Below, piece by piece: positions 2,937 through 62,598 of a stretch of 64,000 nucleotides of DNA; the stretch's first letter is position 1, and each line of letters opens with the position of its first letter. The notes beneath the pieces are model-generated. The model was not told the DNA's origin. It made no database searches and saw only the letters and a list, made by a program, of their open reading frames with translations. The stretch lies in contig OZ024743.1 in assembly GCA_964016885.1 (NCBI GenBank), positions 102,238,001-102,302,000 on the forward strand, written 5' to 3'. This DNA comes from Eledone cirrhosa (lineage: Eukaryota). A program made the translations under genes and the position numbers.

Positions 2937-2938
2937 GC

Positions 2939-3414
2939 AACAGTCAGGTGAAGGTGCTGTGGGATTTTAGGATACAGACGGACAAAAAACTGGAACACAA
3001 TAGACCTGACCTGGTGGTTGTGGACAAAGAAAAAAGATCGTGCCTGATTGTGGATGTGGCCTGCCCGTTCGACACGAGAGTGCAAGAGAAGGAGAGGGAG
3101 AAAATTAACCGATACCAGGACCTAAAGTGGGAGGTGAAAAGGATTTGGAACTGCCATGAAGTCAAAGTGATCCCGATTGTCATAGGCGCACTGGGGACTA
3201 TCTCCAAAGGTTTCCAGGGATGGTTAAAGAAAATCGGCCCCTTCACGCTTTTTGGAACGCTTCAAAAGGCATGCTTGCTTGGAACAGCAAGAACCCTCCG
3301 ATACGTCCTGAATATCTGAGGCTGCAGGTAGTGGCTTGATATTCAATCCAACGGACTTTCCAGTTAACCAACATCAATGACTGAGATTCAAGGAATAACA
3401 ATAACAATAATAAT
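2939..3414 (+). mobile_element. 5'-truncated second copy of the same R4/Dong-like element
   Basis: Repeats 2447-2920 at offset 492 with two substitutions seen; same 3' UTR and AAT tail. Confidence 0.92.
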
Positions 3415-3560
3415 GTTTCTACTTTTGGTACAAGGCCAGCAATAACCCAGTACATTACTGGTACTTTATTTTATCGACTACGTAAGGATGAAAGGCAAAG
3501 TTAACCTCGGCGGGGTTTGAACACAGATCGTAAAGGGAAGTAACTCTCTGCTGGAAAGTA
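3411..3560 (-). mobile_element. tRNA-derived SINE (main family of this window), head truncated
   Basis: Reverse complement of the consensus GAGTTCAAATCCCGCCGAGGTTAACTTTGCCTTTCATCCTTACGGGGTCGATAAAATAAAGTACCAG...AGTAGAAACA(ATT)n. Confidence 0.85.
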
Positions 3561-20335: not shown

Positions 20336-20502
20336 ACACATAAACCGAAAGACCATTAAAAACAATGCAGAACAATGAAATAATATGTAAGTATATTAGT
20401 TCAAAGATGTATATATCTTTACTGTAATAAAGAAATGAGTGCGGGTATACGTCCAGCATATATTTTTTCTTTCTGTTTGTAAAATCGGTTGGATTATTTT
20501 GA

Positions 20503-20806
20503 ATAAATAATTGTTTCTACTTTTGGCACAAGGCCAGCAATAACCCAGTGTATTACTGGTACTTTTATTTTATCGATCCCATAAGGATGAAAGGCAAAGT
20601 TAACCTCGGCGGGATTTGAACTCAGAATGGCAAGGGACGTAACTCTATGCGCCAACACATGGCGTACGACACTCTACCGATACTGCCAATCCATAAATAA
20701 TTGAATAAATAATTGTTTCTACTTTTTGGCACAAGGCCAGAAATTAACCAGTACATTACTGGTACTTTATTTTATCGACCCCGTAAGGATGAAAGGCAAA
20801 GTTAAC
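20503..20806 (-). mobile_element. Tandem pair of main-family SINEs (one full, one truncated)
   Basis: Two copies, each starting AATAATTGTTTCTACTTTT. Confidence 0.88.
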
Positions 20807-21832: not shown

Positions 21833-21950
21833 ATGAGTTCAAATCTCGCCAAGGTTAATTTTGCCTTTCATCCTTACGGGATAGATAAAATAAAGTACCA
21901 GTAATGCACTGGTTAATTGCTGGCCTTGTGCCAATAGTAGAAACAATTAA
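21833..21950 (+). mobile_element. Main-family SINE, 5' truncated
   Basis: GAGTTCAAATC...TTGCCTTTCATCCTTACGGG...GTAGAAACAATT. Confidence 0.85.
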
Positions 21951-28424: not shown

Positions 28425-28691
28425 TGCATTTGCTTTTTGTGTGATGTATTATCCAGATGCAAAGAGTAAACACTCTCCACAATATCCTGTCTGGCTACCT
28501 AGGAAACGTTGATGTATTTTTCTGAAAACCCTTTTTCAAACTGATTCAGCTCAGGAAGTACACAAAGCTCCGGAAGCATGTAGAATTTTCATAAAGGCTG
28601 AAGATTGATTTTGTATGCAATATTAGACGGCTGCAACTAATCTAATACCATCATGAAATCATATGCTTAGTTGCAATGCATATTGAGTAAT

Positions 28692-28872
28692 ATAATTGTT
28701 TCTTCTTTTTTTGGCACAAGGCCAGCAATTACCCAGTATATTACTGGTACTTTATTTTATCGACCCCGTATGGATGAAAGGCAAAGATAACCTCGGCGGA
28801 ATTTGAACTCAGATCGCAAAGGGACGTAACTAAGCTGGAAACCATGTCCGACCACCTACCGATACTGCCAAT
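28692..28872 (-). mobile_element. Main-family SINE
   Basis: Nearly full match, including CCGATACTGCCAAT (A-box complement). Confidence 0.88.
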
Positions 28873-31985: not shown

Positions 31986-32357
31986 TACATACATACACAT
32001 ATATATATATATAAACATATCTTGCATCTATGACATACTTCATCACCAGTCTTTTGTTCAGCGTTACCGCCTGAACCCACAACTGTCAGTCACCCCACAA
32101 ATCTCTTGTCACTTACCCATGATATACATATTATCCTACTTATCTTCCCCACCCTCTTCCCAGCTTACAACCACACATAAGATCACATGTCTGTTCAAAT
32201 TGTGCAAGGCAACATCCCTGGTACTGTAGTCAGGATAAAATCATACACTCAATTAGTTGGTGTTAGGAATGTCTTTCAGCTTTAAGAACCATATCAAAAA
32301 GTGTTGAGAGCACCCACCAGACACAACATAAAAGTCTCTCAAGTATTGGGGCTACAA

Positions 32358-32548
32358 AAATAATAATTGTTTCTACTTTTGGCACAAGGCCAGTAATTAC
32401 CCAGTGCATTACTGGTACTTTATTTTATCGACCCCGTAAGGATGAAAGGCAAAGTCAACCTCGGCGGGATTTGAACTCAGATCGTAAAGGGACGTAACTA
32501 TGCTGGAAAGCATGGCGTCCGACCCTCTACTGATGCTGCCAATCCACC
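32358..32548 (-). mobile_element. Main-family SINE, full length
   Basis: Tail, core, B-box and A-box all present. Confidence 0.9.
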
Positions 32549-33760: not shown

Positions 33761-34304
33761 ACGTGTGTGTGTGCATAACGATATTTGTATGCATGTGTGA
33801 GCGTGTATGTATATACAGCAGTCAAATGGCTGCTCAGAGAAATCTATACATACAGACGCACATATGTTTATTTGTCTTGATCAGTCAGTACAGTTCCTCC
33901 AATACTGCCGACGCTACTTCTGTAGACCATAAAGTAATCCAAATCCTGCAGAGCTCTCATACATTTTACACTTCAAATAGAATTACGGTGAAAGGAATAA
34001 AGTTTACACAGACATAGAAACACACAGACACCCCCACATATATCCACACACACACATAGACACACACATATACAAAAACATATACATATACAATATATAT
34101 TGTATTTATATCCATTCGCGGCGGAATAAAAGCGTTACCCAAGGTTTAAAGGCCCGCATTTTATCATACCTCCAGATCACAAGTGGCATCAAATCCTTCT
34201 ACTTCAGTATTATTAAATTCTCTTTTCCCGCAGTCATTAACCACATACGGACCCCCCCCCCCACACACACACTCTCTCTCTCTCACACACACATACGGCA
34301 TATA

Positions 34305-34375
<71 letters not shown>

Positions 34376-34376
<1 letters not shown>

Positions 34377-34574
34377 GTACTCCTGGAGATGAGGGTTGCA
34401 CATTTTATTTCGGGGGTATGTGTTACCCATATAAACTGTCTCCCCCTATTGGGGAAAATCGACTAACTTTTTAAATTCCATTTGTGATAACATTTTACAC
34501 GTTTTTATTGTATGTAAACTTCCCCCTTTGTATTTGTCCCCTTCTTTTGTGCCCCTGTGGCTAATAAAGAAATA

Positions 34575-34575
<1 letters not shown>
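34376..34575 (+). mobile_element. Tx1-like LINE copy A (3' UTR only) in (TATC)n
   Basis: Matches about 40267-40465; (TATC)n on both sides. Confidence 0.9.
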
Positions 34576-34632
<57 letters not shown>

Positions 34633-34634
<2 letters not shown>

Positions 34635-35245
34635 ATACACTGCCCGGGCGTCACTGACCTGTGGGGCTATGTAGAACGACTATTGTCGCGGGTGGGACCA
34701 ATCCAGTTGACCACCGAGTCCATTGTCATGATCAAACCGCCACCCTCCTTCAAAAACGAAGGAGAGGCGGTTTTCCTTTGTGTGATAGCTATGGCGAAAG
34801 AGGTTGTATGGTGGACAAGGTTGAAAGGGCTGAGGTCAGACACCTTTCTCTCCGGCCAACAACTGATTCTTTTTTTCAAATACCACTTTGGAAGAAGAAT
34901 CAGGATGGAGAGAGAGGTGCTGTACCCCAGCAAGTTTTATGAAAGGTGGGTGAAAGTGGCGAGAATGGCCCGAGTGAATGGGCCTTCTCTCTATATCAGC
35001 CTGTAGGTTGAGGAAAAGGAGGAGGAGAGGAAAGGAGTACAAGCTCTTCGTACTCCTGGAGATGAGGGTTGCACATTTTTTTCGGGGGTCTGTGTTACCC
35101 ATATAAACTGTCTCCCTCTATTGGGGAAAATCGACTAACTTTTAAATTCCATCTGTGATAACATTTTACACGTTTTTATTGTATGTAAACTTCCCCCTTT
35201 GTATTTGTCCCCTTCTTTTGTGCCCCTGTGGCTAATAAAGAAATA
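34633..35245 (+). mobile_element. Tx1-like LINE copy B (5'-truncated; ORF2 end + 3' UTR)
   Basis: Matches about 39851-40465; begins and ends in (TATC)n. Confidence 0.92.
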
Positions 35246-35323
35246 TATCTATCTATATATCTATCAGATAGATAGATAGATATTCGTAGATATCAGATAG
35301 ATAGATAGATAGATAGATAGATA

Positions 35324-36754
35324 TTCGAAAAAAATGGTGCTTTCAGCATCAATTCTCCGGTAGAAATTCGCAAGGAAACTGCTCTCAAAACGATAGTTTT
35401 TAGGACAGTTTCCAACTCTACCCGAAAACCAGTCCAATTGTCACAGAAAGATATTGAACTGGTTTTCAAAGATTCAATGAATGATATTGCATTCATTCAA
35501 AGAAGCAAACTTTTTGGGAGTATTTCGGTACTGATGAAGGATCAATTGACGGCCCAAAATTACTCTGTGTCGCCAATTGTATCCAACCTGTACACCTTTT
35601 TCCCTACATACATGGGAAAAAGGACACAAAAGATCAGAATCACAAGTGTCACACCAAAGGTGAACATATGGTGGATACTGTGCGGCTTCATCAATTTTGA
35701 TGAAGACAGAATACTGTCAGTAGGCAAGTCCCCCAGAGATGTATTCAATGGGACTAGCATTGAAGTTCTGGTGCAAATGAGCCCAGAGCGAATAGCTATG
35801 ATCCCACAGCGTGTACTCCTGGACGGACTTACCTACATAAACCTTTCGGTTGAGGGTAGGCGGCCTTCATGTTACCATTGCTTTAGCAGGGGTCACCTGA
35901 GGGCTTCCTGTCCTAAACTAATGAACCAAAAAAAGGCTCTTCTGCCGACACCCATCAAAACAACACAACCACCAACACCACCACCACAACAACAACACCA
36001 ACACACAAAAATAACCACAACAAACACAGTCCCACCCAACCCCACTCCACCTAAAACCACCGCAAAATCACATACAGACACAACAGCTCCCCAAGACATA
36101 CCCCTCCCCAATCACACAGACGATACAACAGATGAGGCTATCTCGCCATCACCCAGTGAAGACGAGGGAGAACCCCATCGCTCGAAAAGAAAGAAAAGAC
36201 ATCACAAAAGCAAAAAACCAGCAAACACTACCACAAACATACAACCACCAACACAAACAACAAAAATATCACAAACAAAACCCCCACCTCCTGAAAACAA
36301 AATACCCACAACAAAACGAAAGCACACACAAGAACTACAGACAAAAACAAGCACAACACAAGAAAATTACACTTACACTTACATAAACACTGAAAACAAA
36401 ACACTAATGGAGACCACCACGAACGACCCTTCGATTTTCACCGAAGGGAAAACTTTCGCCCACTCTATAAAAAATAGCAAAAAACTGAACCTAAAACTGA
36501 TTAGGGTCCCTATACAAACTTATAGGTCCCTAAAAGAAACATTTGAGAAGGATGTGGGGAATTCCTGCGTGAAACCACTCAACCGCGTCCTTCTCAAATG
36601 CCTCCCCACCCCAGACACCCCCATTCCACCAGACCCCACCCCACCAAACATCTGCGTCCCCACCCCGCCGGAAACCGCCACCCATCCAGACAACCCCTCC
36701 AACACCCCCATGGAAATCGTGCGGCCTGGTCCCCAGGAGGCGAAGGGTGAGTGA
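35324..36754 (+). CDS. ORF1 (gag-like) of copy C, N-terminally truncated
   Basis: CYHCFSRGHLRASC (CX2CX4HX4C) then a Pro/Thr/Lys-rich region; open to TGA at 36752-36754. Confidence 0.8.
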   Translation, partial: FEKNGAFSINSPVEIRKETALKTIVFRTVSNSTRKPVQLSQKDIELVFKDSMNDIAFIQRSKLFGSISVLMKDQLTAQNYSVSPIVSNLYTFFPTYMGKRTQKIRITSVTPKVNIWWILCGFINFDEDRILSVGKSPRDVFNGTSIEVLVQMSPERIAMIPQRVLLDGLTYINLSVEGRRPSCYHCFSRGHLRASCPKLMNQKKALLPTPIKTTQPPTPPPQQQHQHTKITTTNTVPPNPTPPKTTAKSHTDTTAPQDIPLPNHTDDTTDEAISPSPSEDEGEPHRSKRKKRHHKSKKPANTTTNIQPPTQTTKISQTKPPPPENKIPTTKRKHTQELQTKTSTTQENYTYTYINTENKTLMETTTNDPSIFTEGKTFAHSIKNSKKLNLKLIRVPIQTYRSLKETFEKDVGNSCVKPLNRVLLKCLPTPDTPIPPDPTPPNICVPTPPETATHPDNPSNTPMEIVRPGPQEAKGE

Positions 36755-36787
36755 TCTCTTTTCCTCTTTTAACTTTTCAGCACCAAC

Positions 36788-39700
36788 ATGGCCAATATAA
36801 GAGTTGGATGTGTGAACGTACGCGGCCTGGGGATGCCCTGGAAACAGGGCAAACTCTTAAACGACCTCAGGTCACACAGTTTGAATGTGGTAGCCATTTG
36901 CGAGTCCAGGATCCACGGCGAGCGACAGCTGGCCCCCATCTTCGATGACTTTGAGATCTACGCATCTCTCTGTCAACCGGGGGGTGGGGGCGGAGTTGCC
37001 GTTTTGCTGCGGAAACACCTGGGCCTCGTAACACAGACGGTACATCTGGACCCGGAGGGTCGACTGGTGGTCCTAGACGTTGACGGTAGTGAAGGTGGAG
37101 CCTTCAGGCTGGTGGCCGCATATGCCCCATCCGGGACACCGCGGCCAGACTTTTCAAACGTCTAGAGACTTTTCTGGGAACGTCCGGCTCCTTGCTTTTA
37201 GTGGGGGACTGGAATGGAATCCTAGATGCACGTTGGGACTATGTGGGAGCATGTCCCGAAAAAGGGGGGTGTAACAGCCTCAAACAGTTAATCGACCGAT
37301 TTGACCTGGCCGATAGATATCGACTAGATTTTCCGACTGTGCCACTGTGGACGTGGAGTAATCGTAGCGGAACATCTAGATCGTACCTAGATAGGGTTCT
37401 AGTTAGAAATAAGGATAGGGACATGTTAAGCTGTCCACAAATGTTCATGGTTGCCTATTCAGATCACAAACTAGTGACCTGCTTGGCCAACCTTGATAGA
37501 ACCCATAGACAAGGACCCGGCTACTGGAAGCTGAACTTGTCGTTACCGACAAGCAAAGCCTACAGTAGACGGATTAGCACTTTAGTTAAACAGCAATTGA
37601 CAGGGGCCATTGTCAACAACAGATGGTGGTACTCTCTCAAGAGGGCAGTTAGATTAGACTCGATAGTTTTTAGTAAAGAATTAGCGTTAGATAGAAATAG
37701 ATCCGAGAAGGAACTGGTAGATAAAGTAGAAGAGGCAATTAGAAGTGGCAACGTAGCCAGCGTGCTAGCAACGAGAACGGCCTTGGACCAGTTCTTCGAC
37801 GCAAAGCACGAGGGCTGCGTTGTCAGAAGCAAAATACGTGCTCTGGGAAACGAGGGAGCCAAAGCTGTTAGCTGGGCCCGAGTGACGGAGGCAAAAAGTG
37901 GCAACAAGTCCACGATTCGGTCTTTGAAGGACCAAAACGGACGCGTGATACGTGAGCCGAAGCAGATGTGTGCGGCTTTTCAGCGGCACTTTGCTCGGCT
38001 GTTCGGGGGGAGCGGCGCGCCGGGAGAGGCTATGGATTTCGGTCCATACCTCGACGGCCTACCGCGACTCTCGGACAGTGAGGCGAAGTTCTGCGAAAAG
38101 CCGATTTCAGCCACTGAGATAGGGGACGCGCTGAGCCAATGCGGCAAACGCAAATCTCCAGGTCTCGACGGTCTACCCTACGAATTTTACGTCGCAATGC
38201 CGGACTTATTCTCCGGTCTCCTGGAAGCGGTCTACTGCAACTGGCAACAGAACGGGAGAATTCCCAGTTCTGTAACCGGGGGCGTGGTCACACTAATCAG
38301 GAAGGACGAGAATAAGGGGGATGACATAGGCAACTTCCGGCCCATAACTCTGCTAAACACAGAGTTACAGATTTTGGCCAAGGTGTTGGCAAAGAGGCTG
38401 GCGCTTGTCGTCGAGAACCTGGTGGGAGAAGCGCAGACATGCGCGATCCCGACCAGGTCCATACACGACAACCTCCACCTCATGCGATACATCATAGAGA
38501 GGGTAGGGTGTAAACCCGGCTTCGGTGGGGCCCTGATCAACTTGGATCAGTCTAAGGCTTTCGATAGGGTTTACCATCGTTACCTGGATGCGGTGCTCGA
38601 GGCGGCAGGCTTCGGACCCGTGTTCAGGGGCTGGATTGCTGCAATGCACAACAGCAACATCTGCTCAAGGGTCAAGGTGAACGGTTACCTCTCGGAGCCG
38701 TTCCATATTACGCGATCCATTCGACAGGGATGCCCTCTCTCCTCCCTTCTGTACGTACTGACTCACGAGCCACTACTGCGGAAGCTGGAGCTATTGCAGG
38801 GCATCCCTCTGGAACCTGGACTGCGGAAAGCGGCGTCGGCCTAGGCCGACGACGTGACAGTAATGATGTCGAGCGCCTCGCAAATCGAGGAAGTCGGCAC
38901 CTTACTAAAGGAATACGAAAGTCTCACAGGAGCGAAGCTGAACCGGGACAAGTCCATCGGTTTGCAACTCGGATCGTGGAGAGGCAGACCGATGCCTTCC
39001 GATGGCGTCGTCGGACGCTGGACGGAAGGACCGGTAAAGCTGCTCGGGGTCTGGTTTGGTCCGGACCTCCAGGTGGAGAGGAACTGGAACGAAGTGACGG
39101 CCAAGGTGTTTGCACTCACCCAGAAGTGGGCCGAGTGCAAACTATCCTTGAAAGGTCGAGCGGAGGTGGCGAACACTTTTATAGCGTCCGCCATCTACTA
39201 CCGCTTGACCGTCGTGCCTTGTCCAGCCAAAACGCTCGCCAAAATGGAGCGCGCCCTCTTCCAATTCCTTTGGAAGAGGCGGGCTCCTTTGGTAAGAAGA
39301 TCCATCTGCTGCCAACACCCTTCTAACGGAGGGCTGGGGATGCCGTGGTTGACGATGCGCAAACACGCGCTCAGGCTGCGGCATCTCTACGTATTCCTCA
39401 CCGGACAACCGGTGTGGGCCCCGTTCGTGAGGCGAGCCTTCCCACGACTCGTCTCGCTGACCGAGCTGCAGTCCTGGGTCAAGCAGAGACCGAGGAAAAT
39501 GGGCGACTGGCACATCGAATGTGCTCAGGCGCTCACAGCCCTCTGGCAGGCGGACCCGGCGATCAGTGGAGACTCCACTTCGTCATTCTATAGAGGGTTG
39601 GTCCGCAGCAAGTGCGACGACGCGCTCGGTGAAACTCTAGGCGTGGAGGAAGATGAACTGGCCAGTCTGTTCGGTAGGACCTTCCGCCCGGGACCGATGG

Positions 39701-40224
39701 ACAACTTCCAAAAGTCCCTGGCCTGGCAGTGCTACCGAGGAGCTCTACCAGTTCGAGACAAGCTCTACAGACATGGGCGCCCGGGCAGGGACCCTGCAAA
39801 AAAGATCTGTCCGAGGTGCGTGCGAGACGAAGAAACCGTCGCGCACGCATTCATACACTGCCCGGGCGTCACTGACCTGTGGGGCTATGTAGAACGACTA
39901 TTGTCGCGGGTGGGACCAATCCAGTTGACCACCGAGTCCATTGTCATGATCAAACCGCCACCCTCCTTCAAAAACGAAGGAGAGGCGGTTTTCCTTTGTG
40001 TGATAGCTATGGCGAAAGAGGTTGTATGGTGGACAAGGTTGAAAGTGCTGAGGTCAGACACCTCTCTCTCCGGCCAACAACTGATTCTTTTTTTCAAATA
40101 CCACTTTGGAAGAAGAATCAGGATGGAGAGAGAGGTGCTGTACCCCAGCAAGTTTTATGAAAGGTGGGTGAAAGTGGCGAGAATGGCCCGAGTGAATGGG
40201 CCTTCTCTCTATATCAGCCTGTAG
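36788..40224 (+). pseudogene. ORF2 (APE endonuclease, RT, C-terminal CCHC) of copy C, with two lesions
   Basis: GCVNVRGL, GDWN, YLDRVLV, SDHK (APE); KSPGLDGLP, FRPITLLN, LDQSKAFDRV, RQGCPLS (RT). A 1-nt deletion near 37152 and a TAG at 38842 replacing Y of YADD; CPRC..ETVAHAFIHC. Confidence 0.9.
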
Positions 40225-40474
40225 GTTGAGGAAAAGGAGGAGGAGAGGAAAGGAGTACAAGCTCTTCGTACTCCTGGAGATGAGGGTTGCACATTTTTTT
40301 CGGGGGTCTGTGTTACCCATATAAACTGTCTCCCTCTATTGGGGAAAATCGACTAACTTTTAAATTCCATCTGTGATAACATTTTACACGTTTTTATTGT
40401 ATGTAAACTTCCCCCTTTGTATTTGTCCCCTTCTTTTGTGCCCCTGTGGCTAATAAAGAAATATATCTATCTAT

Positions 40475-43400
40475 CAGACGTATGTAACTTCGCGGAGAAG
40501 TTTCCGTTAATTTATGTTAGAAAAAAACGTGAGTTTTCAGTTAAATTTTATATTATTGCGTAACTTGACCACCCGTCTCGACCTTCAGGTGGTGGGTCAA
40601 CTCATTTTCGCCCCTACAGAGGCGAAATATTCGTTTGAAAAATGTTTTCTCCATCGAATTTTGGAAAAAATATTGTAAAAGTTTGATTACGTTATGAACG
40701 CTCGCGTCCAACGATAATGGTGGTGGAGAGGCGGTAAGACTACAAAGCTCGCAGTCAACATCGTCTTTTTCACTAGATACTATAGAGATGGAAAGACGGA
40801 ATGAAAATGTAAAAACAAATTCATATCCAAACAACACAAATGACACCAAACAGTTCAATGACAACAAAAATAACAGCAACACCAATAATGATGATAAAAA
40901 CAACAATGATAACAACAACAAAGAAAAAAATAAAGACAACACCAATAACACCAGCATCAAAGACAACAACAACACCAAGGAAAATACGAATAATATCAAC
41001 ATCGGTGGCAACAAGAATAACAACAGCAATAACAACAATAATGACAACACCTCCAACACGGATACTTCCACAAAGGAACCAAAATCTCCTTTGCACAGAC
41101 AGTTCAGAAAAAAGAGGACTGATATATCTCGACATAACAAATGCCGAACAACTTTTAAAGGACGCTATGAGATATGTCACTTTCGAAAAAAATGTTGCTT
41201 TCGGCATCAATTCTCCGGTAGAAATTCGCAAGGAAACTGCTCTCAAAACGATAGTTTTTAGGACAGTTTCCAATTCTACCCGAAAACCAGCCAATTATCA
41301 CAGAAAGAAATTGAACTGCTTTTCAAAAATTCAATGAATGATATTGCATTCATTCAAAGAAGCAAACTTTTTGGGAGTATTTCGGTACTGATGAAGGATC
41401 AATTGACGGCCCAAAATTAGTCTGTGTCGCCAATTGTATCCAACCTGTACACCTTTTTCCCTACATACATGGAAAAAAGGACACAAAAGATAAAAATCAC
41501 GTGTGTCACACCAAAGGTGAACATATGGTGGATACTGTGCGGCTTGATCAATTCTGATGAAGACAGAATACTGTCAGTAGGAAAGTCCCAAGAGATGTAT
41601 TCAATGGGACTAGCATTGAAGTTCTGGTGCTAATGAGCACAGAGCGAATAGCTATGATCCCACAACGTGTACTCCTGGACGGATTCACCTACATAAACTT
41701 TTCGGTTGAGGGTAGGCGGCTTTCATGTTACCATTGCTTTAGCAGGGGTCACCTGAGGGCTTCCTGTCCTAAATTAATGAATAAAAAAAAGGCTCTTCTG
41801 CCGACACCCATCAAAACAACACAAGCACCAACACCACCACAACAACAACAACACCAACACACAAAAATAACCACAACAAACACAGTCCCACCCAACCCCA
41901 CTCCACCTAAAACCACTGCAAAATCACATACAGACACAACAGCTCCCCAAGACATACCCCTCCCCAATCACACAGACGATACAACAGATGAGGCTATCTC
42001 GCCATCACCCAGTGAAGACGAGGGAGAACCCCATCGCTCGAAAAGAAAGAAAAGATATCATAAAAGAAAAAAACCAGCAAACACTACCACAAACCTACAA
42101 CCACCAACACAAACAACAAAAACATCACAAACAAAACCCCCACCTCCTAAAAACAAAATACCTACAACAAAACGAAAGCACACACAAGAACTACAGACAA
42201 AAACAAACACAAGACAAGAAAATTACACTTACACTTACATAAACACTGAAAACAAAACACTAATGGAGAGCATCGCGAACGACCCTTCGGTGAAAACCGA
42301 AGGGAAAACTTTCGCCCACTCTATTAAAAATAGCAAAAAACTGAACCTAAAACTGATTAGAGTCCCTATACATACTTATAGGTCCCTAAAAGAAACATTT
42401 GAGAATGATGTGGGGAATTCCTGCGTGAAACCACTCAACCACGTCCTTCTCAAATGTCTCCCCACCCCAGACACCTTCATCCCACCAGACCCCACCCCAC
42501 CAAACATCTCCGTTCCCACCCCGCCGGAAACCACCACCCATCCAGACGACCCCTCCAACACCTCATGGAAATCGTGCGGCTTGATCCCCAGGAGACGAAG
42601 GGTGAGTGATCTCTTTTCCTCTTTTAACTTTTCAGCACCAACATGGCCAATATAAGAGTTGGATGTGTGAACGTACGCGGCCTGGGGGTGCCCTGGAAAC
42701 AGGGCAAACTCTTAAACGACCTCAAGTCGCACAGTATGGATGTGGTAGCCATTTGCGAGTCCAGGATCCACAGCGTGCGACAGCTGGCCCTCATCTTCGA
42801 TGACTTTGAGATCTACGCATCTCTCTGTCAACCGGGGGGTGGGGGCGGAGTTGCCGTTTTGCTGCCGAAACACCTGGGCCTCGTAACACAGACGGTACAT
42901 CTGGACCCGGAGGGTCGACTGGTGGTCCTAGACGTTGACGGTAGTTAAGGTGGAGCCTTCAGGCTGGTGGCCGCATATGCCCCATCCGGGACACCGCGGC
43001 CAGACTTTTTCAAACGTCTAGAGACGTTTCTGGGAACGTCCCGCTCCTTGCTTTTAGTGGGGGACTGGAATGGAATCCTAGATGCACGTTGGGACTATGT
43101 GGGAGCATGTCCCGATAAAGGGGGGGGGGGGGTGTAACAGCCTCAAACAGTTAATCGACCGATTTGACCTGGCCGATAGATATCGACTAGATTTTCCGAC
43201 TGCGCCACTGTAGACGTGGATTAATCGTAGCGGAACATCTAGATCGTACCTAGATAGGGTTCTAGTTAGAAATAAGGTGTCCACAAATGTTCATGGTTGC
43301 CTATTCAGATCACAAACTAGTGACCTGCATGGCCAACCTTGATAGAACCCATAGACAAGGACCCGGCTACTGGAAGATGAACTTGTCGTTACCGACAAGC

Positions 43401-45910
43401 AAAACCTACAGTAGACGGATTACCACTTTAGTTAAACAGCACTTTGGAGGGGCCATTGTCAACAACAGATGGTGGTACTCTCTCAAGAGAGCAGTTAGAT
43501 TAGACTCGATAGTTTTTAGTAAAGAATTAGCGTTAGATAGAAATAGAACCGAGAAGGAACTGGTAGATAAAGTAGAAGAGGCAATTAGAAGTGACAACGT
43601 AGCCAGCGTGCTAGCAACGAGAACGGCCTTGGACCAGTTCTTCGACGCAAAGCACGAGGGCTGCGTTGTCAGAAGCAAAATACGTGCTCTGGGAAACGAG
43701 GGAGCCAAAGCTGTTAGCTGGGCCCGAGTGACGGAGGCAAAAAGTGGCAACAAGTCCACGATTCGGTCTTTGAAGGACCAAAACGGACGCGTGATACGTG
43801 AGCCGAAGCAGGTGTGTGCGGCTTTTCAGTGGCACTTTGCTCAACTGTTCGGGAGGGGCGACGCGCCGGGAGAGGCTATGGATTTCGGTCCATACCTCAA
43901 CTGCCTACCGCGACTCTCGGACAGCGAGGTAAAGTTCTGCGAAAAGCCGATTTCACCCGCTAAGATAGGGGACGCGCTGAGCCAATGCGGCAAACGCAAA
44001 TCTCCAGGTCTCCACGGTCTACCCTACGAATTTTATGTAGCAATGCCGGACTTATTCTCCGGTCTCCTGGAAGTGGTCTACTGCAACTGGCAACAGCACG
44101 GGAGAATTCCCAGTTCTGTAACCGGGGGCGTGGTTACACTAATGAGGAAGGACGAGAATAAGGGGGATGACATAGGCAACTTCCGGCCCATAACTCTACT
44201 AAACACAGAGTTACAGATTTTGGCCAAGGTGTTGGCAAAGAGGCTGGCGCTTGTCGTCGATAACCTGGTGGGAGAAGCCCAGACATGCGCAATCCCGACC
44301 AGGTCCATACACGACAACCTCCACCTCATGCGATACATCATAGAGAGGGTAGGGTGTAAACCCGGCTTCGGTGGGGCCCTGGTCAACTTGGATCAGTCTA
44401 AGGTTCCGATAGGGTTGACCATCGTCACCTGGATGCGGTGCTCAAGGCGGCAGGCTTCGGACCTGTGTTCAGGGGCTGGATTGCTCCAATGCACAACAGC
44501 AACATCTGCTCAAGGGTCAAAGTGAACGGCTACCTCTCGGAGCCGTTCCATATTACGCGATCCATTCGACAGGGATGCCCTCTCTCCTCCCTTCTGTGCG
44601 TACTGACTCTCAAGCCACTACTGCGGAAGCTGAAGCTATTGCAGGGCATCCCTCTAGAACCGGGACTGCGGAAAGCGGCGTCGGCCTACGTCGACGACGT
44701 GACAGTAATGGTGTCGAGCGCCTCGCAAATCGAGGAAGTCCGCACCTTACTGAAGGAATACGAAAGTTTCACAGGAGCGAAGCTGAACCGGGACAAGTCC
44801 ATCGGTTTGCAACTCGGATCGTGGAGAGGCAAACTGATGCCTTTCGATGGCGTCGTCGGACGCTGGACGGAAGGACCGGTAAAGCTGCTCGGGGTCTGGT
44901 TTGGTCCGGACCTCCAGGTGGAGAAGAACTGGAACGAAGTGACGGTCAAGGTGTTTGCACTCACCCAGAAGTGGGCCGAGTGCAAACTATCCTTGAAAGG
45001 TCTAGCGGAGGTGGCGAACACTTTTATAGCGTCCGCCATCTACTACCGCTTGACCGTCGTGCCTTGTCCAGCCAAAACGCTCGCCAAAATGGAGCGCGCG
45101 CTCTTCCGATTCCTTTGGAAGAGGCGGGCTCCTTTGGTGAGAAGATCCATCTGCCAAAAGTCCCTGGCCTGGCAGTGCTACCGAGGAGCTCTACCAGTTC
45201 GAGACAAGCACTACAGACATGGGCGCCCGGGCAGGGACCCTGCAAAAAAGATCTGTCCGAGGTGCGTGCGAGACGAAGAAACCGTCGCGCACGCATTCAT
45301 ACAGTGCCCGGGCGTCACTGACCTGTGGGGCTGTGTAGAACGACTATTGTCGCGGGTGGGACCAATCCGGTTGACCACCGAGTCCACTGTCATGATCAAA
45401 CCGCCACCCACCTTCAAAAACGAAGGAGAGGCGGTTTTCCTTTGTGTGATAGTTATGGCGAAAGAGGTTGTATGGTGGACAAGGTTGAAAGGGCTGAGGT
45501 CAGACACCTTTCTCTCCGGCCAACAACTGATTCTATTTTTCAAATACCACTTTGGAAGAAGAATCAGGATGGAGAGAGAGGTGCTGTACCCCAGCAAGTT
45601 TTATGAAAGGTGGGTTAAAGTGGCGAGAATGGCCCGAGTGAATGGGCCTTCTCTCTATATCAGCCTGTAGGTTGAGGAAAAGAAGGAGGAGAGGAAAGGA
45701 GTACAAACTCTTCGTACTCCTGGAGATGAGGGTTGCACATATTTTCGGGGGTATGTGTTACCCATATGAACTGTCTCCCCCTATTGGGGAAAATCGACTA
45801 ACTTTTTAAATTGCATTTGTGATAACATTTTACACGTTTTGTATTGTATGTAAACTTCCCCCTTTGTATTTGTCCCCTTCTTTTGTGCTCCTGTGGCTAA
45901 TAAAGAAACA
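40475..45910 (+). mobile_element. Tx1-like LINE copy D, apparently full-length 5' end, decayed, with internal deletion
   Basis: Starts after TATC with AGACGTATG; about 310-bp 5' UTR; Asn-rich ORF1 from 40788 (frameshifted); ORF2 42643-45670 with stops, frameshifts and YVDD. Confidence 0.92.
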
Positions 45911-45932
45911 TATCTATTTATCTATCTATCTA

Positions 45933-47400
45933 TGGAGAGGCAAACCAATGCCTTCCGATGGCGTCGTCGGACGCTGGACGGAAGGACCGGTAAAGCTTCT
46001 CGGGGTCTGGTTTGGTCCGGACCTCCAGGTGGAGAAGAACTGGAACGAGGTGACGGCCAAGGTGTTTGCGCTCACCCAGAAGTGGGCCGAGTGTAAACTA
46101 TCCTTGAAAGGTCGAGCGGAAGTGGCGAACACTTTTATAGCGTCCGTCATCTACTACCGCGTGACCGTCGTGCCTTGTCCAGCTAAAACGCTCACCAAAA
46201 TGGAGCGCACGCTCCTCCAATTCCTCTGGAAGAAACGGGCTCCTTTGGTTAGAAGATCCATCTGCTGCCAACATCCTTCAAACGGAGGGCTGGGGATGCC
46301 GTGGATGACGATGCGCAAACACGCGCTCAGGCTGCGGCACCTCCACGTATTCCTAACCGGAAAACCGGTGTGGTTCGTGAGGCGAGCCTAGCTGACCGAG
46401 CTGCAGTCCTGGGTCAAGGAAAGACCGAGGAAAATGGGCGACTGCTTATCGACTGTGCTCAGGCGCTCACAGTCCTCTGGCAAACGGACCCGGCGATCAC
46501 TCGAGACTCCACTTCGACATTCTATAGAGGGTTGGTCCGAAGCAAGTGCGACGACGCGCTCGGAGAAACTCTAGGCGTAGAGGAGGACGAACTGGCCAGT
46601 CTGTTCGGTAGGACCTTCCGCCCGGGACCAATGGACAACTTCCAAAAGTCCCTGACCTGGCAGTGCTACCGAGGAGCTCTACCAGTTCGAGACAAGCTCT
46701 ACAGACACGGGCGGCCGGGCAGGGACGCTTCGAAAAAGATCTGTCCGAGATGCGTGCGGGACGAGGAAACCGTCGCGCACGCATTTGTACACTGCCCGGG
46801 CGTTGCCGACCTGTGGGGCTATGTGGAACGACTATTGTCGCGGGTGTGACCAATCCAGTTGAGCACCGAGTCCATTGTCATGATCAAACCGCCACCCTCC
46901 ATCAAAAATGAGGGAGAGGCGGTTTTCCTATGTGTTATGGCTATGGTGAAAGAGGTTATATGGTGGACGAGGTTAAAAGGGCTGAGGTCAGACACCTTTC
47001 TCTCCGGCGAGCAACTGATTCGTTTTTTCAAATATCATTTTGGAAGAGGAATCAGGATGGAGAGAGAGCTGCTCTACCCCAAGGTAGATGAATGTGGCAA
47101 AGATGGCCCGAGTGGTTGGGCCTTCTCTCTGTATAAGCCTGTCGGTTGAGGAAAAAGATGAAGAGAGGAAAGGAGTACTCACTCTTTGTGCTCCTGGAGT
47201 TGAGGATTGTACATTTTTTCGGGGGGTGTACAACCCCTCTGTAACGCCGCCCCCTATTGGGTATTTCAATTGTTATTTGTTATTTTATTAATAGTTTTAT
47301 TTTCATATACCTGTATGTAAACTCCCCATTTGTATTTGTCCTCTTCTTTTGTGCCCTTGTGGCTAATAAAGAAATCTATCTCTCTATCTATTTAATCTAT
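45933..47400 (+). mobile_element. Tx1-like LINE copy E (5'-truncated, most diverged)
   Basis: Homologous from about 38977 onward; more substitutions and indels; different 3' UTR variant ending AATAAAGAAATCTATC. Confidence 0.9.
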
Positions 47401-47839
47401 CCATCTATATCCATATACTCCAGACCGTGTCTGCATTTAGCTGTCGCAACAGCAAGTGTTCATCCGTCTGGTTTCCACTCCTAATATAGTCGCACACTAC
47501 TATCCCCAAATTTCCCTAATTGTATAAAGCGCCAAAGTGAATAAAAGACTGAAAATACGGGTGCGTGTGTCTGTCTGTTAGAAACTATGTAACAAGACGG
47601 GTGTAGCCTGATTCTGTTTTACTGTGAGGGCTGAGGCATTGTTTTGTAGGACATATTTGATTGTTACATGGTCTTATAAAAATCAATACGTATATTTGGC
47701 ATGATTTCATGTCTATAAACTAAAAATGTTTAACTTTATAAACACATTTACTCAGTTACAGTTAGTTCTATTCTGTATACATACAGATATAACTTTATTA
47801 TACACATCGGCTGCTTATCGCACAACTTAATGTATCTCT

Positions 47840-52237: not shown

Positions 52238-52762
52238 GGCGGTGGATTGGCAGTATCGGTAGACGCCATGCTTTGCAGCGAATAGTTATGGCCCATTATG
52301 GTCTGAGTTCAAATCCCGCCGACGTTAACTTTGCCTTTCATTCTTACGGGGTCGATAAAATAAAGTACCAGTCACGCTCTGGGGTTATTTAATCAATTTT
52401 CCCTATCCCCAAATTACTGACCTTGTACCTGTAGTACAAATCATTATTATTATATGCATTGGTAGAGGGTCGGACGCCATGCTTTGACGCATAGATTTAC
52501 GGCCCTAGCCATTCTGAGTTCAAAATAAAGTACCAGTCACGCATAGAGTTACGGCCATTGCCATTCTCAGTTCAAATCCCGCCGAGGTTAACTTTGCCTT
52601 TCATCCTTACGGGGTCGATAAAATAAAGTACCAGTAACGCACTGGGTAATTATTGGCCTTGTGCCAAAAAGTAGAAACAATTATTATTATATGCATAGGA
52701 TTGGCAGTATGAGTAGAGGGTCTGACGCCATGCTTTGCAGCAAAAAGTAGAAATAATTATTA
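52238..52762 (+). mobile_element. Cluster of main-family SINE copies and fragments
   Basis: Four overlapping or tandem segments with A-box, B-box, core and tail. Confidence 0.85.
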
Positions 52763-57401: not shown

Positions 57402-57937
57402 ACTGCTAAATATTAATAATTGTTTCTACTTTTGGCACAAGGCCAGTAAATTACCCAGTGCATTACTGGTACTTTATTTTAACCACCCCATAAGGATGAA
57501 AGGCAAAGTTAACCTCGGAAGGATTTGAACTCAGTCTGTAAAGGGCCGTAACTCTATGCTGCAAAGCATGGTGTCCGACACTCTACCGATACTGCCAATC
57601 CACCGCCAATCCACTGCTAAATATTAATAATTGTTTCTACTTTTGGCACAAGGCCAGCAATTAACCAGTGTATTACTGGTACTTTATTTTATCGACCCCA
57701 TAAGGATGAAAGGCAAAGTTAACCTCGGCGGGATGTGAACTCATAATGGCAAGGGCCATAACTCTATGCGTCAAAGCATGGCGTCCGACCCTCTACCGAT
57801 ACTGCCAATCCACTGCTAAATATTAATAATTGTTTCTACTTTAGGCACAAGGCCAGCAATTACCCAGTGCATTACTGGTCCTTTATTTTATCGACCCCGT
57901 AAGGATGAAAGGCAAAGTTAACCTCGGCGGGATTTGA
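57402..57937 (-). mobile_element. Tandem trimer of main-family SINEs
   Basis: Three units, each preceded by ACTGCTAAATATTAATAAT. Confidence 0.9.
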
Positions 57938-58742
57938 AAAATGTTAATAATGTTTATAAATATATTGAAAATAATGATTTTACATTACAGGAGTGCATGT
58001 TTAATGCAAAAATACTATTTGAAATCTATTTATTAAAATGAATAGAACAGCTACAATCACGTGGAGCTTTCAGAAATGGAATCTTGCCGGCAAAAATAAC
58101 TATTTGAGAAACATTACAATTAATTGTATTTTTAAATGTCTTCAAAAGTCAATATATGAAGTATGTCTAAAGAGAAATTGTATCTCTGAAAATATTAGCA
58201 TATTTTCTAATGTAACTCACATGGTGGTGAAAATAAAATGGGATGTTGCATGCGTAAAAGAATTAGTAAAGGTTTCAGTGCTCCAGCTATTAACTATTCC
58301 ATAGATATCTGAAAAATACAATTCATGGGTTATTTTAATCTTATATGCAAACATTTTTCTCTGCATTAATTTTCCCTTGTCGAAACGGATATATAATTTT
58401 CAACTATTTGAGTTGTGTAGACTTCTAATGTTATACCTTCATTAAATATCATTAAAAACAACATTCGTGTATCTTTAAAAAGTAATTTTATTCATCCTTG
58501 TCTGAGATACATAGCCATATGCACGCACACAATTCTCACCTATCTTTCTATTTCTTCTTCTCTCCCTCATTCCATCTTCTGATAAAGGATTGATGTACAT
58601 AACGTTAAGATGCCTTTCCTACTATATCAAACGAGAAATTAATCTATATCATCATTGCATTGCATGATTCTCATTCTGTATGTTGTCTTTCTTTGTTGAC
58701 TCCGCTCTCACTCACTCTTTCACACACTCGCAATTATATATA

Positions 58743-59265
58743 TAGAGTCGTATTCGCGGGGGTTACGTTCCTTTAACAACCGCCAAGAGTGGAAAAAACA
58801 CAAATAATCGACGTGGTCGATAAAACTGCCAATAAACGTGAAAATATAACGTAATATATAGGCCGGCAAATACGGTATATTGTTATTAATAATTTAGCGT
58901 TACAAAGCATGAACAAATATGTATTGCCACGAAAAAGCCATTCAAAAATCGCGGAAGATATTTACGATTCCCCGAATATGCGGTGGTTTCCACGAACAAT
59001 TATTTGAATTGGTAGTATCGGTAGAGGGTTTTACGCCATGCTTTGACGCATAGAGTTACGGCCCTTGCCATTCTGAGTTCAAATCGAGCCGAGGTTAACT
59101 TTGCCTTTCATCCTTACGGGGTCGATAAAATAAAGTACCAGTAATACACTGGGCAATTGCTGGCCTTGTACCATAAGTAGAAACGATTATTAGGTTGTTC
59201 TCAGGAAAATTCTGCAAATAACCGGCACCGCGAATACCGGCACCATGAATTCCAGTATAACTATA
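58743..59265. mobile_element. Tigger/pogo-type MITE remnant interrupted by a SINE
   Basis: GTATTCGCGGGGGTTACGTTCC at left, CCGCGAATAC subterminal motifs at right, TA context. Confidence 0.45.
59008..59192 (+). mobile_element. Main-family SINE
   Basis: A-box, B-box, core and ATT tail. Confidence 0.88.
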
Positions 59266-60327
59266 TATATATATATAGTTATACTTGGGGAAGGTCATAT
59301 TTGTGTAATATTGCCAGAATTAATAACAGAACACACTCACTGTTTGGTTGGTTTTCGCTTCTCGCTGTCTTTTATATCTGTAATCTAACTTAATCGGTCC
59401 TCAATGTTGCCATTGACTGACCGACGGTCAAAAATAATACAGATACAATATAGACACAAACACATATGTATAGTTTTCATAATTTACATAAATCTTTCGT
59501 TGCACTCTGCAACATCGTCAGTGGTGTTATATTTTCCTCCTGTTGTGTTGTATGTCTACGCCATTTTTTATTCAGTCTGTCTATATATTTATTTATTTAT
59601 TTGCTCGTTTGTTTATTTTATTTTGTCTTCTTTGCGCATGCGTTTGCGTGTGTGTATAGTGTTATGTTTGCTGGGTGACTAGTGTGTGTTTATGTGCTTG
59701 TTGTTATTGTGCTTGTGTATGTATTTATTTATCTTATTTTATTTACTTATTTATACTTCTCTTAGGTCAGTGTTGTTTGTTTGTGTGTTGTTATAACAAC
59801 AACACCCAAACAATCGTTTCTTCCAAACATACGTTTGGAATCATCGGATCATTAGCAATGTGTGTACATATAATTAACCTCCTATTCAACTGAACAATCA
59901 TATAGATACATATATATTGATGTTGTGAACAAGAGTTTCGTATTTACAGGGTGGAATTGATGCGACATATATTATACGAGAATTGTAATATAATTCAAAT
60001 TAAAATTAATAGCACAGAGTGGAATACATGCAACAGATAATACAAGGGAATAGTCTAATAATTAAATATGCATTGAGGGAGAATGAGGACACTAGCAGTA
60101 CATATGCAAGCATGTAGATAGTGCACATGCGTTAGTCATATATATGAAGGAAATAAACAAAAGTATTAGGCATTAATAAATACTGTATGGCAAAGGTATC
60201 ACATTTATTCCTGCTCTGTAAAACACCTGATGTTCTTACATTGAGGTATTTCTCTTACGGGTAATAAGGTGGTAATAAATTACTGACCTTTCCTGTTTAT
60301 AGTTGTTTATAGTATATACATAACTAT

Positions 60328-60522
60328 TGTGGATTGGCAGTATCGGTAGAGGGTCGGACGCCATGCCTTTTAGCATAGTTACGTCCCTTTACAATCTGAG
60401 TTCAAATCACGCCGAGGTTGACTTTGCCTTTCATCCTTACGTGGTCGATAAAATAAAAGTACCAGTGATGCACTGGGTAATTGCTGGCCTTGTGCCTAAA
60501 GTAGAAACAATTATTATTATTA
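60328..60522 (+). mobile_element. Main-family SINE, full length
   Basis: GGATTGGCAGTATCGGTAGAG...GAGTTCAAATC...GTAGAAACA(ATT)n. Confidence 0.9.
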
Positions 60523-61254
60523 TATATATATATGTAGATAAATCTACCAACATATACGGTAGTGTCCAATCCGTATGAAGAACTCAATGTAATCCAAATA
60601 TCATGAAAAGAGATGTATTCAAAAATGTTTTTTTTTCTGAAGACAGCATATATATGTGTAGGTATGTATATTCCCTCTGACATAGATCTATATGATATAC
60701 ATACCAACACACACATATATATCCTAGAAACAATCGTAAAATGATGAATTTTTTAATATAAGGAACTGTTTCTTTGTTTTTATTCATTGTTTTTATTAAT
60801 TTATATATATATATATATATGTGTGTGTGTGCCTTCATCGAGTTGGCTGTCTAACAATTGCCCTCCTCAACAAACTTGGTGAGGTTGTTGTTTAGTTGCC
60901 GCTGACCTTACCATTCTGCTGAATGAATACATGCTTGTGCAAATATATGTGTTTATACGCTTATACAAAGACACACAGGAGAAGGATACGCATACCTAAA
61001 TGTTGGATTGGTGGTATATTATTTTAACGCTCGATATAGTTGCAGCACAGTCTGAAGATAACTAATGCTATTACTTCATTAGAAGATTGAATGAGAGAGA
61101 TACAGCAAAAGATGAATGGAAAGGATAAGTAAAAAAAGGGATGATAAACCTGAGTAAAATTTTGACGACGTTGAAAATGGAAAAGATAAATATATATATG
61201 TATTTATCCATGTATATTCATAAATAACATATTTGCATACATGAAATGGCATAT

Positions 61255-62542: not shown

Positions 62543-62598
<56 letters not shown>
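62543..62598. repeat. (GATA)n microsatellite with no LINE insertion
   Basis: Direct reading. Confidence 0.9.

Follow-up and report, generated by a model that had tools for sequence, protein, structure and literature searches.

The 64,000-nucleotide stretch of the Eledone cirrhosa genome analysed here (assembly GCA_964016885.1, contig OZ024743.1, forward strand, positions 102,238,001 to 102,302,000; hereafter the window) contains five copies, named A to E, of a long interspersed nuclear element (LINE) lying among (TATC)n repeats. Self-BLAST and a motif scan of the window placed the five copies head-to-tail on the + strand, and together with the sequence itself they bore out the initial annotation, which had described five copies in one orientation without poly(A). 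The features of the stack are listed below in window positions, with L044, an intact young copy of 5842 nt, as the identity reference.

34301..34376, + strand: (TATC)n run, the proposed target, 5' of copy A, 76 nt
34377..34572, + strand: copy A, 196 nt, 3' untranslated region (UTR) only, 97.4% identical to L044 and 98.0% to a D-type copy
34573..34634, + strand: TATATCT end of A and (TATC)n run, about 62 nt before B
34635..35243, + strand: copy B, 609 nt, 5'-truncated young copy, 99.7% identical to L044
35244..35323, + strand: end of B (TATATCT), followed by a short TATC run and by (GATA)n pieces in inverted orientation
35324..40461, + strand: copy C, 5138 nt, young, 99.3% identical to L044, lacking the first 703 nt
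40462..40475, + strand: TATC-type junction between C and D, 14 nt
40476..45908, + strand: copy D, full 5' end, older, 95.4/96.7% identical to L044, CATATCT end
45909..45932, + strand: TATC-type junction between D and E, 24 nt
45933..47374, + strand: copy E, of the most diverged subfamily, 1442 nt long, 87.7% identical to L044 and 89.8% to an E-type copy
47375..47410, + strand: degenerate (TATC)n run 3' of E

The 3' ends of the five copies, AATAAAGAAA, finish at positions 34572, 35243, 40461, 45908 and 47374, where AAAGAAA is followed by a TATC-type run and poly(A) is found in none. The common 3' end running into (ATCT)n that had been proposed is therefore present as a shared end and a TATC-type run, but the runs start differently, with TATATCT in A to C, CATATCT in D and TCTATCT in E. 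At the 5' side, TATC-type runs of 76, about 62, 14 and 24 nt stand directly before A, B, D and E, as initially described. Copy C, rightly excluded from that description, is preceded instead by inverted (GATA)n pieces at 35266-35323, which were not seen in 99 other copies of the family and perhaps reflect fold-back or template switching. None of the five copies is intact. In copy C the ORF1 (first open reading frame) part is open at 35321-36754 and includes a CCHC knuckle, and ORF2, with its endonuclease (APE), reverse transcriptase (RT) and zf-RVT domains, is interrupted by a frameshift near 37150 and by a stop codon at 38842-38844. Copy D has an internal deletion of about 390 nt in ORF2 and several frame breaks. 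Judging from divergence, E would have inserted first, followed by D and A and then by C and B.

In the 3.0-Gb genome, searches with the 3' UTRs of copies C, E and D yielded 716, 1716 and 1671 candidates respectively, of which the best 40 each were scored. Intact copies are 5.84 kb long and consist of a 643-codon ORF1 frame and a 1150-codon ORF2 frame. ORF1 had no Pfam match at all, so that its CCHC knuckle is assigned from the motif C-x2-C-x4-H-x4-C. ORF2 matched Exo_endo_phos (the APE domain, 4e-12), RVT_1 (6e-27) and zf-RVT (4e-6), and its best relatives of solved structure are the L1 endonuclease and ORF2. The whole 1150-codon frame is open in 27 of 150 scored protein matches; with so many intact copies the family is recently amplified or active. 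The nearest named protein comes from Argonauta hians (67% identity in the RT), and the element is also present in contigs of two sequencing runs with other organism labels.

To describe the insertion sites, the flanks of 99 copies were scored (38 of 40 young, 36 of 41 E-type and 29 of 40 D-type matches, minus the four adjacent twins L007, L015, L025 and L046), with copies D and E of the window excluded. Under a strict definition, which asked for 8 nt or more of perfect TATC no further than 20 nt from the junction, 64 of the 99 copies have a run on both sides, and the GATA orientation was found 5' of none (0/99). Strict runs stand 5' of 72 and 3' of 81 copies, against the 20% of flanks with one sequence type above which target preference has been called (PMC4494074). 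The background for the strict 5' run is only 0.23% (935 of 399,040 positions in twenty evenly placed 10-kb stretches), which excludes chance as the cause of the TATC flanks. A TC run stands 5' of 4 copies, against 72 for TATC, and (TA)n, although far commoner in the background (7.8%), flanks 2. Looser tests gave 79/99 for 8 nt of TATC within 40 nt 5' (background 0.47%) and 84/99 for TATCT within 25 nt 5' (background 5.1%). In a second sample of 50 loci, which shares one copy with the first, 34 had both junctions in view, and TATC was found 5' of 30 and 3' of 30 of these. The pattern that the initial annotation had named as speaking for a tail, TATC at the 3' end only with random 5' flanks, is thus not the one found in either sample. 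A search with another LINE of the window gave no match, and the controls are the arbitrary stretches and an ATT lineage described below. Three insertions (L038, L041 and L100) lie directly upstream of repeats beginning TCTATATA, which we take to resemble Helitron 5' ends.

No family 3' end was found within 160 nt upstream in 42 of the 72 copies with 5' TATC, indicating that their 5' run is not the tail of a neighbour. Target duplications were then inspected. Non-repeat bases were flagged in the duplication of 22 copies. Eight of these were discarded, either for their very small length or because they extended into an adjacent copy or depended on microhomology at the junction. The 14 kept are 10-21 nt long and extend into non-repeat DNA, and in 10 of them at least 7 further TATC bases lie to the left of the duplication. 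Empty sites were read at one locus, L087, via paralogs and not alleles. L087 is flanked by a repeat of high copy number and has four ATCT units itself. In paralogs without the insertion, (ATCT)3 is directly followed by the sequence that forms the 3' flank of L087 (71 contigs in run X1, which may be the assembled sample, and 76 in run X5, from another study), and further uninserted paralogs have two units and a variant (40 and 42 contigs, respectively). For L016, no contig joint across the insertion was found among the matches listed, in which other copies swamped the result. Together, the duplications and the empty paralogous sites show that the repeat pre-existed, as a target and not only a tail. 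The initial proposal that the family targets (GATA)n is upheld by the flanks, duplications and empty sites, with the qualifications that the specificity is leaky and that part of the 3' run comes from the element. That a (TATC)n-targeting LINE family exists is well supported.

The 3' run begins with bases supplied by the element itself, which read TATATCT in 33 of 34 young, CATATCT in 25 of 29 D-type and TTTATCT in 23 of 36 E-type copies, and TATATCT is kept in L036, an off-target copy within (CA)n. A subfamily-specific 3' start that persists off target indicates that the RNA likely ends in TATCT. The two runs also differ in length, the 5' run being longer in 57 and the 3' run in 20 of 78 copies (p=3e-5; median 25.5 versus 16.5). 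Microhomology of at least 2 nt was found at 22 of 43 truncated 5' junctions as opposed to 13% in simulation, a difference that the alignment may inflate. Full-length copies carry a target-like leader, CTCTCTA(T/C)(C/A), in 19 of 24 cases (8/11 and 11/13), and truncated copies in none (0/65). The idea that full-length copies copy the upstream flank was dropped because the sister family has a different leader, and what is left of it is a short family-borne leader.

We consider it likely that the stack represents five insertions of a recent two-ORF LINE family into pre-existing (TATC)n in one orientation, with the endonuclease and a TATCT-ending RNA together choosing the site. The element's endonuclease would nick the GATA strand of the repeat, and the DNA end set free would pair with the TATCT end of the RNA and serve as primer for the reverse transcriptase, as in target-primed reverse transcription. 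The second strand would be cut 10-21 nt downstream. Joining at the 5' side could be aided by 1-4 nt of microhomology; where a resident copy lies alongside, long homology could take this role and would give chimeric twins. Each insertion would leave target on both sides, so that later copies could land beside earlier ones.

Several observations weigh against this interpretation. The specificity is leaky, 20 of 99 copies having no 8-nt TATC run within 40 nt 5' and 15 of 99 not even TATCT within 25 nt, and L036 is a true off-target copy; some of the copies without 5' TATC may have lost their 5' end later. In 4 of the 14 inspected duplications at most 3 repeat bases lie to the left, which indicates that a single TATCT can suffice. 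The flank samples comprise only the best-scoring matches, those of the young set coming from contig C1. A sister TATC family in the same genome is looser, with a strict 5' run in 3/8 and 12/20 copies (15/20 within 30 nt) and a 3' run in 25/30 and 16/20. Finally, the endonuclease and the RNA end differ together between the TATC and the ATT lineages, so that their shares in target choice are inseparable here.

The ATT lineage, with an ORF2 about 69% identical and a CATT end, lies in (ATT)n. Its flanks, scored with the strict script, have ATT 3' in 20/20 and 5' in 15/20 copies and TATC in none; an older ATT set has ATT 3' in 25/25 and a strict 5' run in 5/14, its 5' ends being not reliably placed. 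In a tree (LG+G4) one clade (100/99) united the seven TATC-family rows, to the exclusion of the three ATT rows (87/83), Argonauta and one further protein. The root of this tree is unsure because the outgroup is long. The endonuclease hairpin loop reads x-N-R/H-S-G-T/Q-S in the TATC lineage versus T-N-R-I/V-G-S-S in the ATT lineage, and in L1 chimeras this loop shapes target choice (PMC1950540). The ATT lineage, which also forms stacks and has many open ORF2 frames, was seen at L344-L363, at L364-L388 (many contigs) and at L216:1610-2200.

These lineages bear on a different, in our view unlikely, explanation, namely that the target is set mainly by the RNA 3' end, a loosely specific endonuclease nicking AT-rich sites of which only those pairing with the TATCT tail are extended. 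The element-borne tail, the occurrence of single-TATCT sites (L090) and the coincidence of CATT ends with (ATT)n sites would all fit such a process, and the 3' repeats of Bov-B have been proposed to affect nick choice or priming (PMC13295347). However, L036 inserted in (CA)n, where there was little to pair with, the longer 5' runs fit a protein that binds several repeats to the left of the nick, and the endonucleases differ between the lineages, hairpin loop included. A bolder scenario, which we regard as speculative and rather improbable, is that the lineage switched between (ATT)n and (TATC)n with an ORF2 that remained about 70% identical, driven largely by the few target-like bases of the RNA 3' end, with arrays built by joining cDNA (complementary DNA) to a resident copy. 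If this were true, a different tail could redirect the element to another target.

It is very improbable that insertion is non-specific and that the element makes (TATC)n as its tail, the 5' runs being the tails of neighbours or products of joining. The absence of poly(A) and the element-borne start of the run agree with this, as does the presence of a family end upstream of 38 of the 99 copies and of 3 of the 12 TATC runs in 200 kb of arbitrary DNA. This explanation is nevertheless largely refuted by the 42 copies with 5' TATC and no family end upstream, by the repeats to the left of duplications that end in unique DNA, and by the empty paralogs that already have the repeat.

Returning to insertion into pre-existing (TATC)n, a family neighbour lies within 200 nt of 56 of the 99 copies. 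The proposed re-insertion beside earlier copies agrees with this count, but some twins elsewhere in the genome are chimeras with the resident copy and not plain independent insertions. At L034/L004 (G000:C1:292.87 Mb) and L095 (G000:C4:358.85 Mb) the upstream twin is chimeric and shares its truncation point with the downstream copy. The first 400 nt of L034 and the first 900 nt of L095 match the older downstream copy, and the remainder is young. This fits the joining of a new cDNA to a resident copy by homology, and a similar process is known for human L1. Among 13 downstream neighbours examined, 12 have ORF1 or ORF2 matches to the family, with ORF2 segments mostly 70-90% identical, and for 9 of these 12 the sequence examined also covers the neighbour's own 3' end, which lies in TATC. 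It is hardly credible that one copy was tandemly duplicated or mis-assembled to give the stack, or that random insertions survived only in repeats: twins with identical truncation points do occur elsewhere (L006/7, L014/15, L024/25) and B and C are 99.7% alike, but the copies of the window differ in subfamily and in 5' end and range from 87.7 to 99.7% identity to L044 (the divergence from which the initial annotation had correctly argued against simple tandem duplication), the bias is already seen among copies whose 3' UTRs are 100% identical, the commoner (TA)n is hardly used, and two of the twins are chimeric, part young and part older copy.

To place the family we built a tree of 32 chosen rows in which the anchors were identified by flanks alone. 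The family, Argonauta and a clade of ENA proteins formed one group (100/100), sister to a (TC)n-flanked metagenome group at 82/94 (83 and 95 in quick trees). The family fell within a 27-row group together with U2-, U5- and TC-associated elements (91/95), and the enclosing 28-row group (99/96) was apart from an outgroup pair, one row of which, L208, has a Transposase_22 ORF1. Tx1 elements have a separate ORF1 with a CCHC knuckle, unlike the Transposase_22 type of L1. From these sequence comparisons, membership of Tx1 is likely and the link to Kibi-like elements appears weak. In the trees, the closest group with an identified target comprises the metagenome element L170, with TC at both ends, and fish and turtle proteins. 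Metagenome anchors include a full-length (TC)n-flanked, Kibi-like element (L170, L153) and U2/U5-adjoining, Keno-like elements (L132-L134, L144, L152). The ENA proteins (P0006-P0078), a clade of ORF2s of about 1150 aa with clusters of up to 732 members, are the nearest sister of the octopod lineage. A metagenome scan gave only distant relatives (25-40%), none of which had a run of four TATC units.

Insertion into simple repeats is known from several LINEs, among which SART1Bm, Waldo, Mino and Dong belong to other clades than Tx1. Waldo and Mino (ACAY, AC) and Dong (TAA) insert in fixed orientation into other repeats (PMC3812793). SART1Bm likewise inserts in fixed orientation into (TTAGG)n, where it needs at least 3 units, and it depends on a poly(A) tail, which the present family does not have (PMC7265360). 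More similar are Kibi, at (TC)n, and Koshi, at (TTC)n, of teleosts and the crocodilian Tx1 elements at (TTCC)n and (TTTC)n, which are APE-type LINEs of the Tx1 group with the microsatellite on both sides (PMC4494074, PMC3812793). By its target the present family is neither Kibi nor Koshi: (TATC)n is not a pure pyrimidine repeat and the host is an octopod, and identity to TC-flanked elements is 30-35% over the aligned part of ORF2. Keno and other small nuclear RNA-associated Tx1 families share the ORF layout and target RNA genes, not microsatellites (PMC4494074), and the U2/U5-adjoining metagenome elements are 31-34% identical to the family. The Tx1 microsatellite targets reported are TC, TTC, TTCC and TTTC (PMC4494074), and the repeat targets given in the available text of a 2013 review are ACAY, AC, TC, TTC and TAA, with GATA not listed (PMC3812793). 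In octopus, L1-Tx1 elements are reported to be recently active, with 13 families and 421 recent insertions (PMC13282606, PMC8967140); the main text of the former mentions neither 'target' nor 'GATA', and the latter neither 'GATA' nor 'microsatellite'. Our literature searches, including three cephalopod papers, showed no GATA-targeting Tx1, in line with the initial annotation, which knew of no described GATA-specific Tx1 family; Repbase, Dfam and the 2004 Kibi/Koshi paper, outside this search, may hold one.

Microsatellite targeting by APE-type LINEs is thus already known, and this analysis adds the target, the pairing with an ATT sister lineage and the chimeric twins. The same review called the mechanism of such targeting not well understood (PMC3812793), and the TATC and ATT sister lineages in one genome offer a natural pair for the study of target choice. 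Many GATA microsatellites in this genome appear tied to LINE ends, as the 3 of 12 runs in 200 kb suggest, which bears on marker design and on the assembly of arrays.

Elsewhere in the window, a (GATA)14 run at 62543-62598 has no family copy adjoining it in the self-BLAST. A further LINE-like element, tailed by (AAT)n and with a tandem duplication of 492 bp, is represented at 2200-3414 by its 3' end; the part tested had no Pfam match, and we presume that it resembles an element with a restriction-like endonuclease such as Dong/R4. The self-BLAST also detected a dispersed repeat of about 200 bp, similar to a short interspersed nuclear element, at 3401-3560, 20496-20806, 21834-21949, 28680-28872, 32351-32548, 52240-52750, 57402-57938 (tandem copies), 58998-59192 and 60322-60527.

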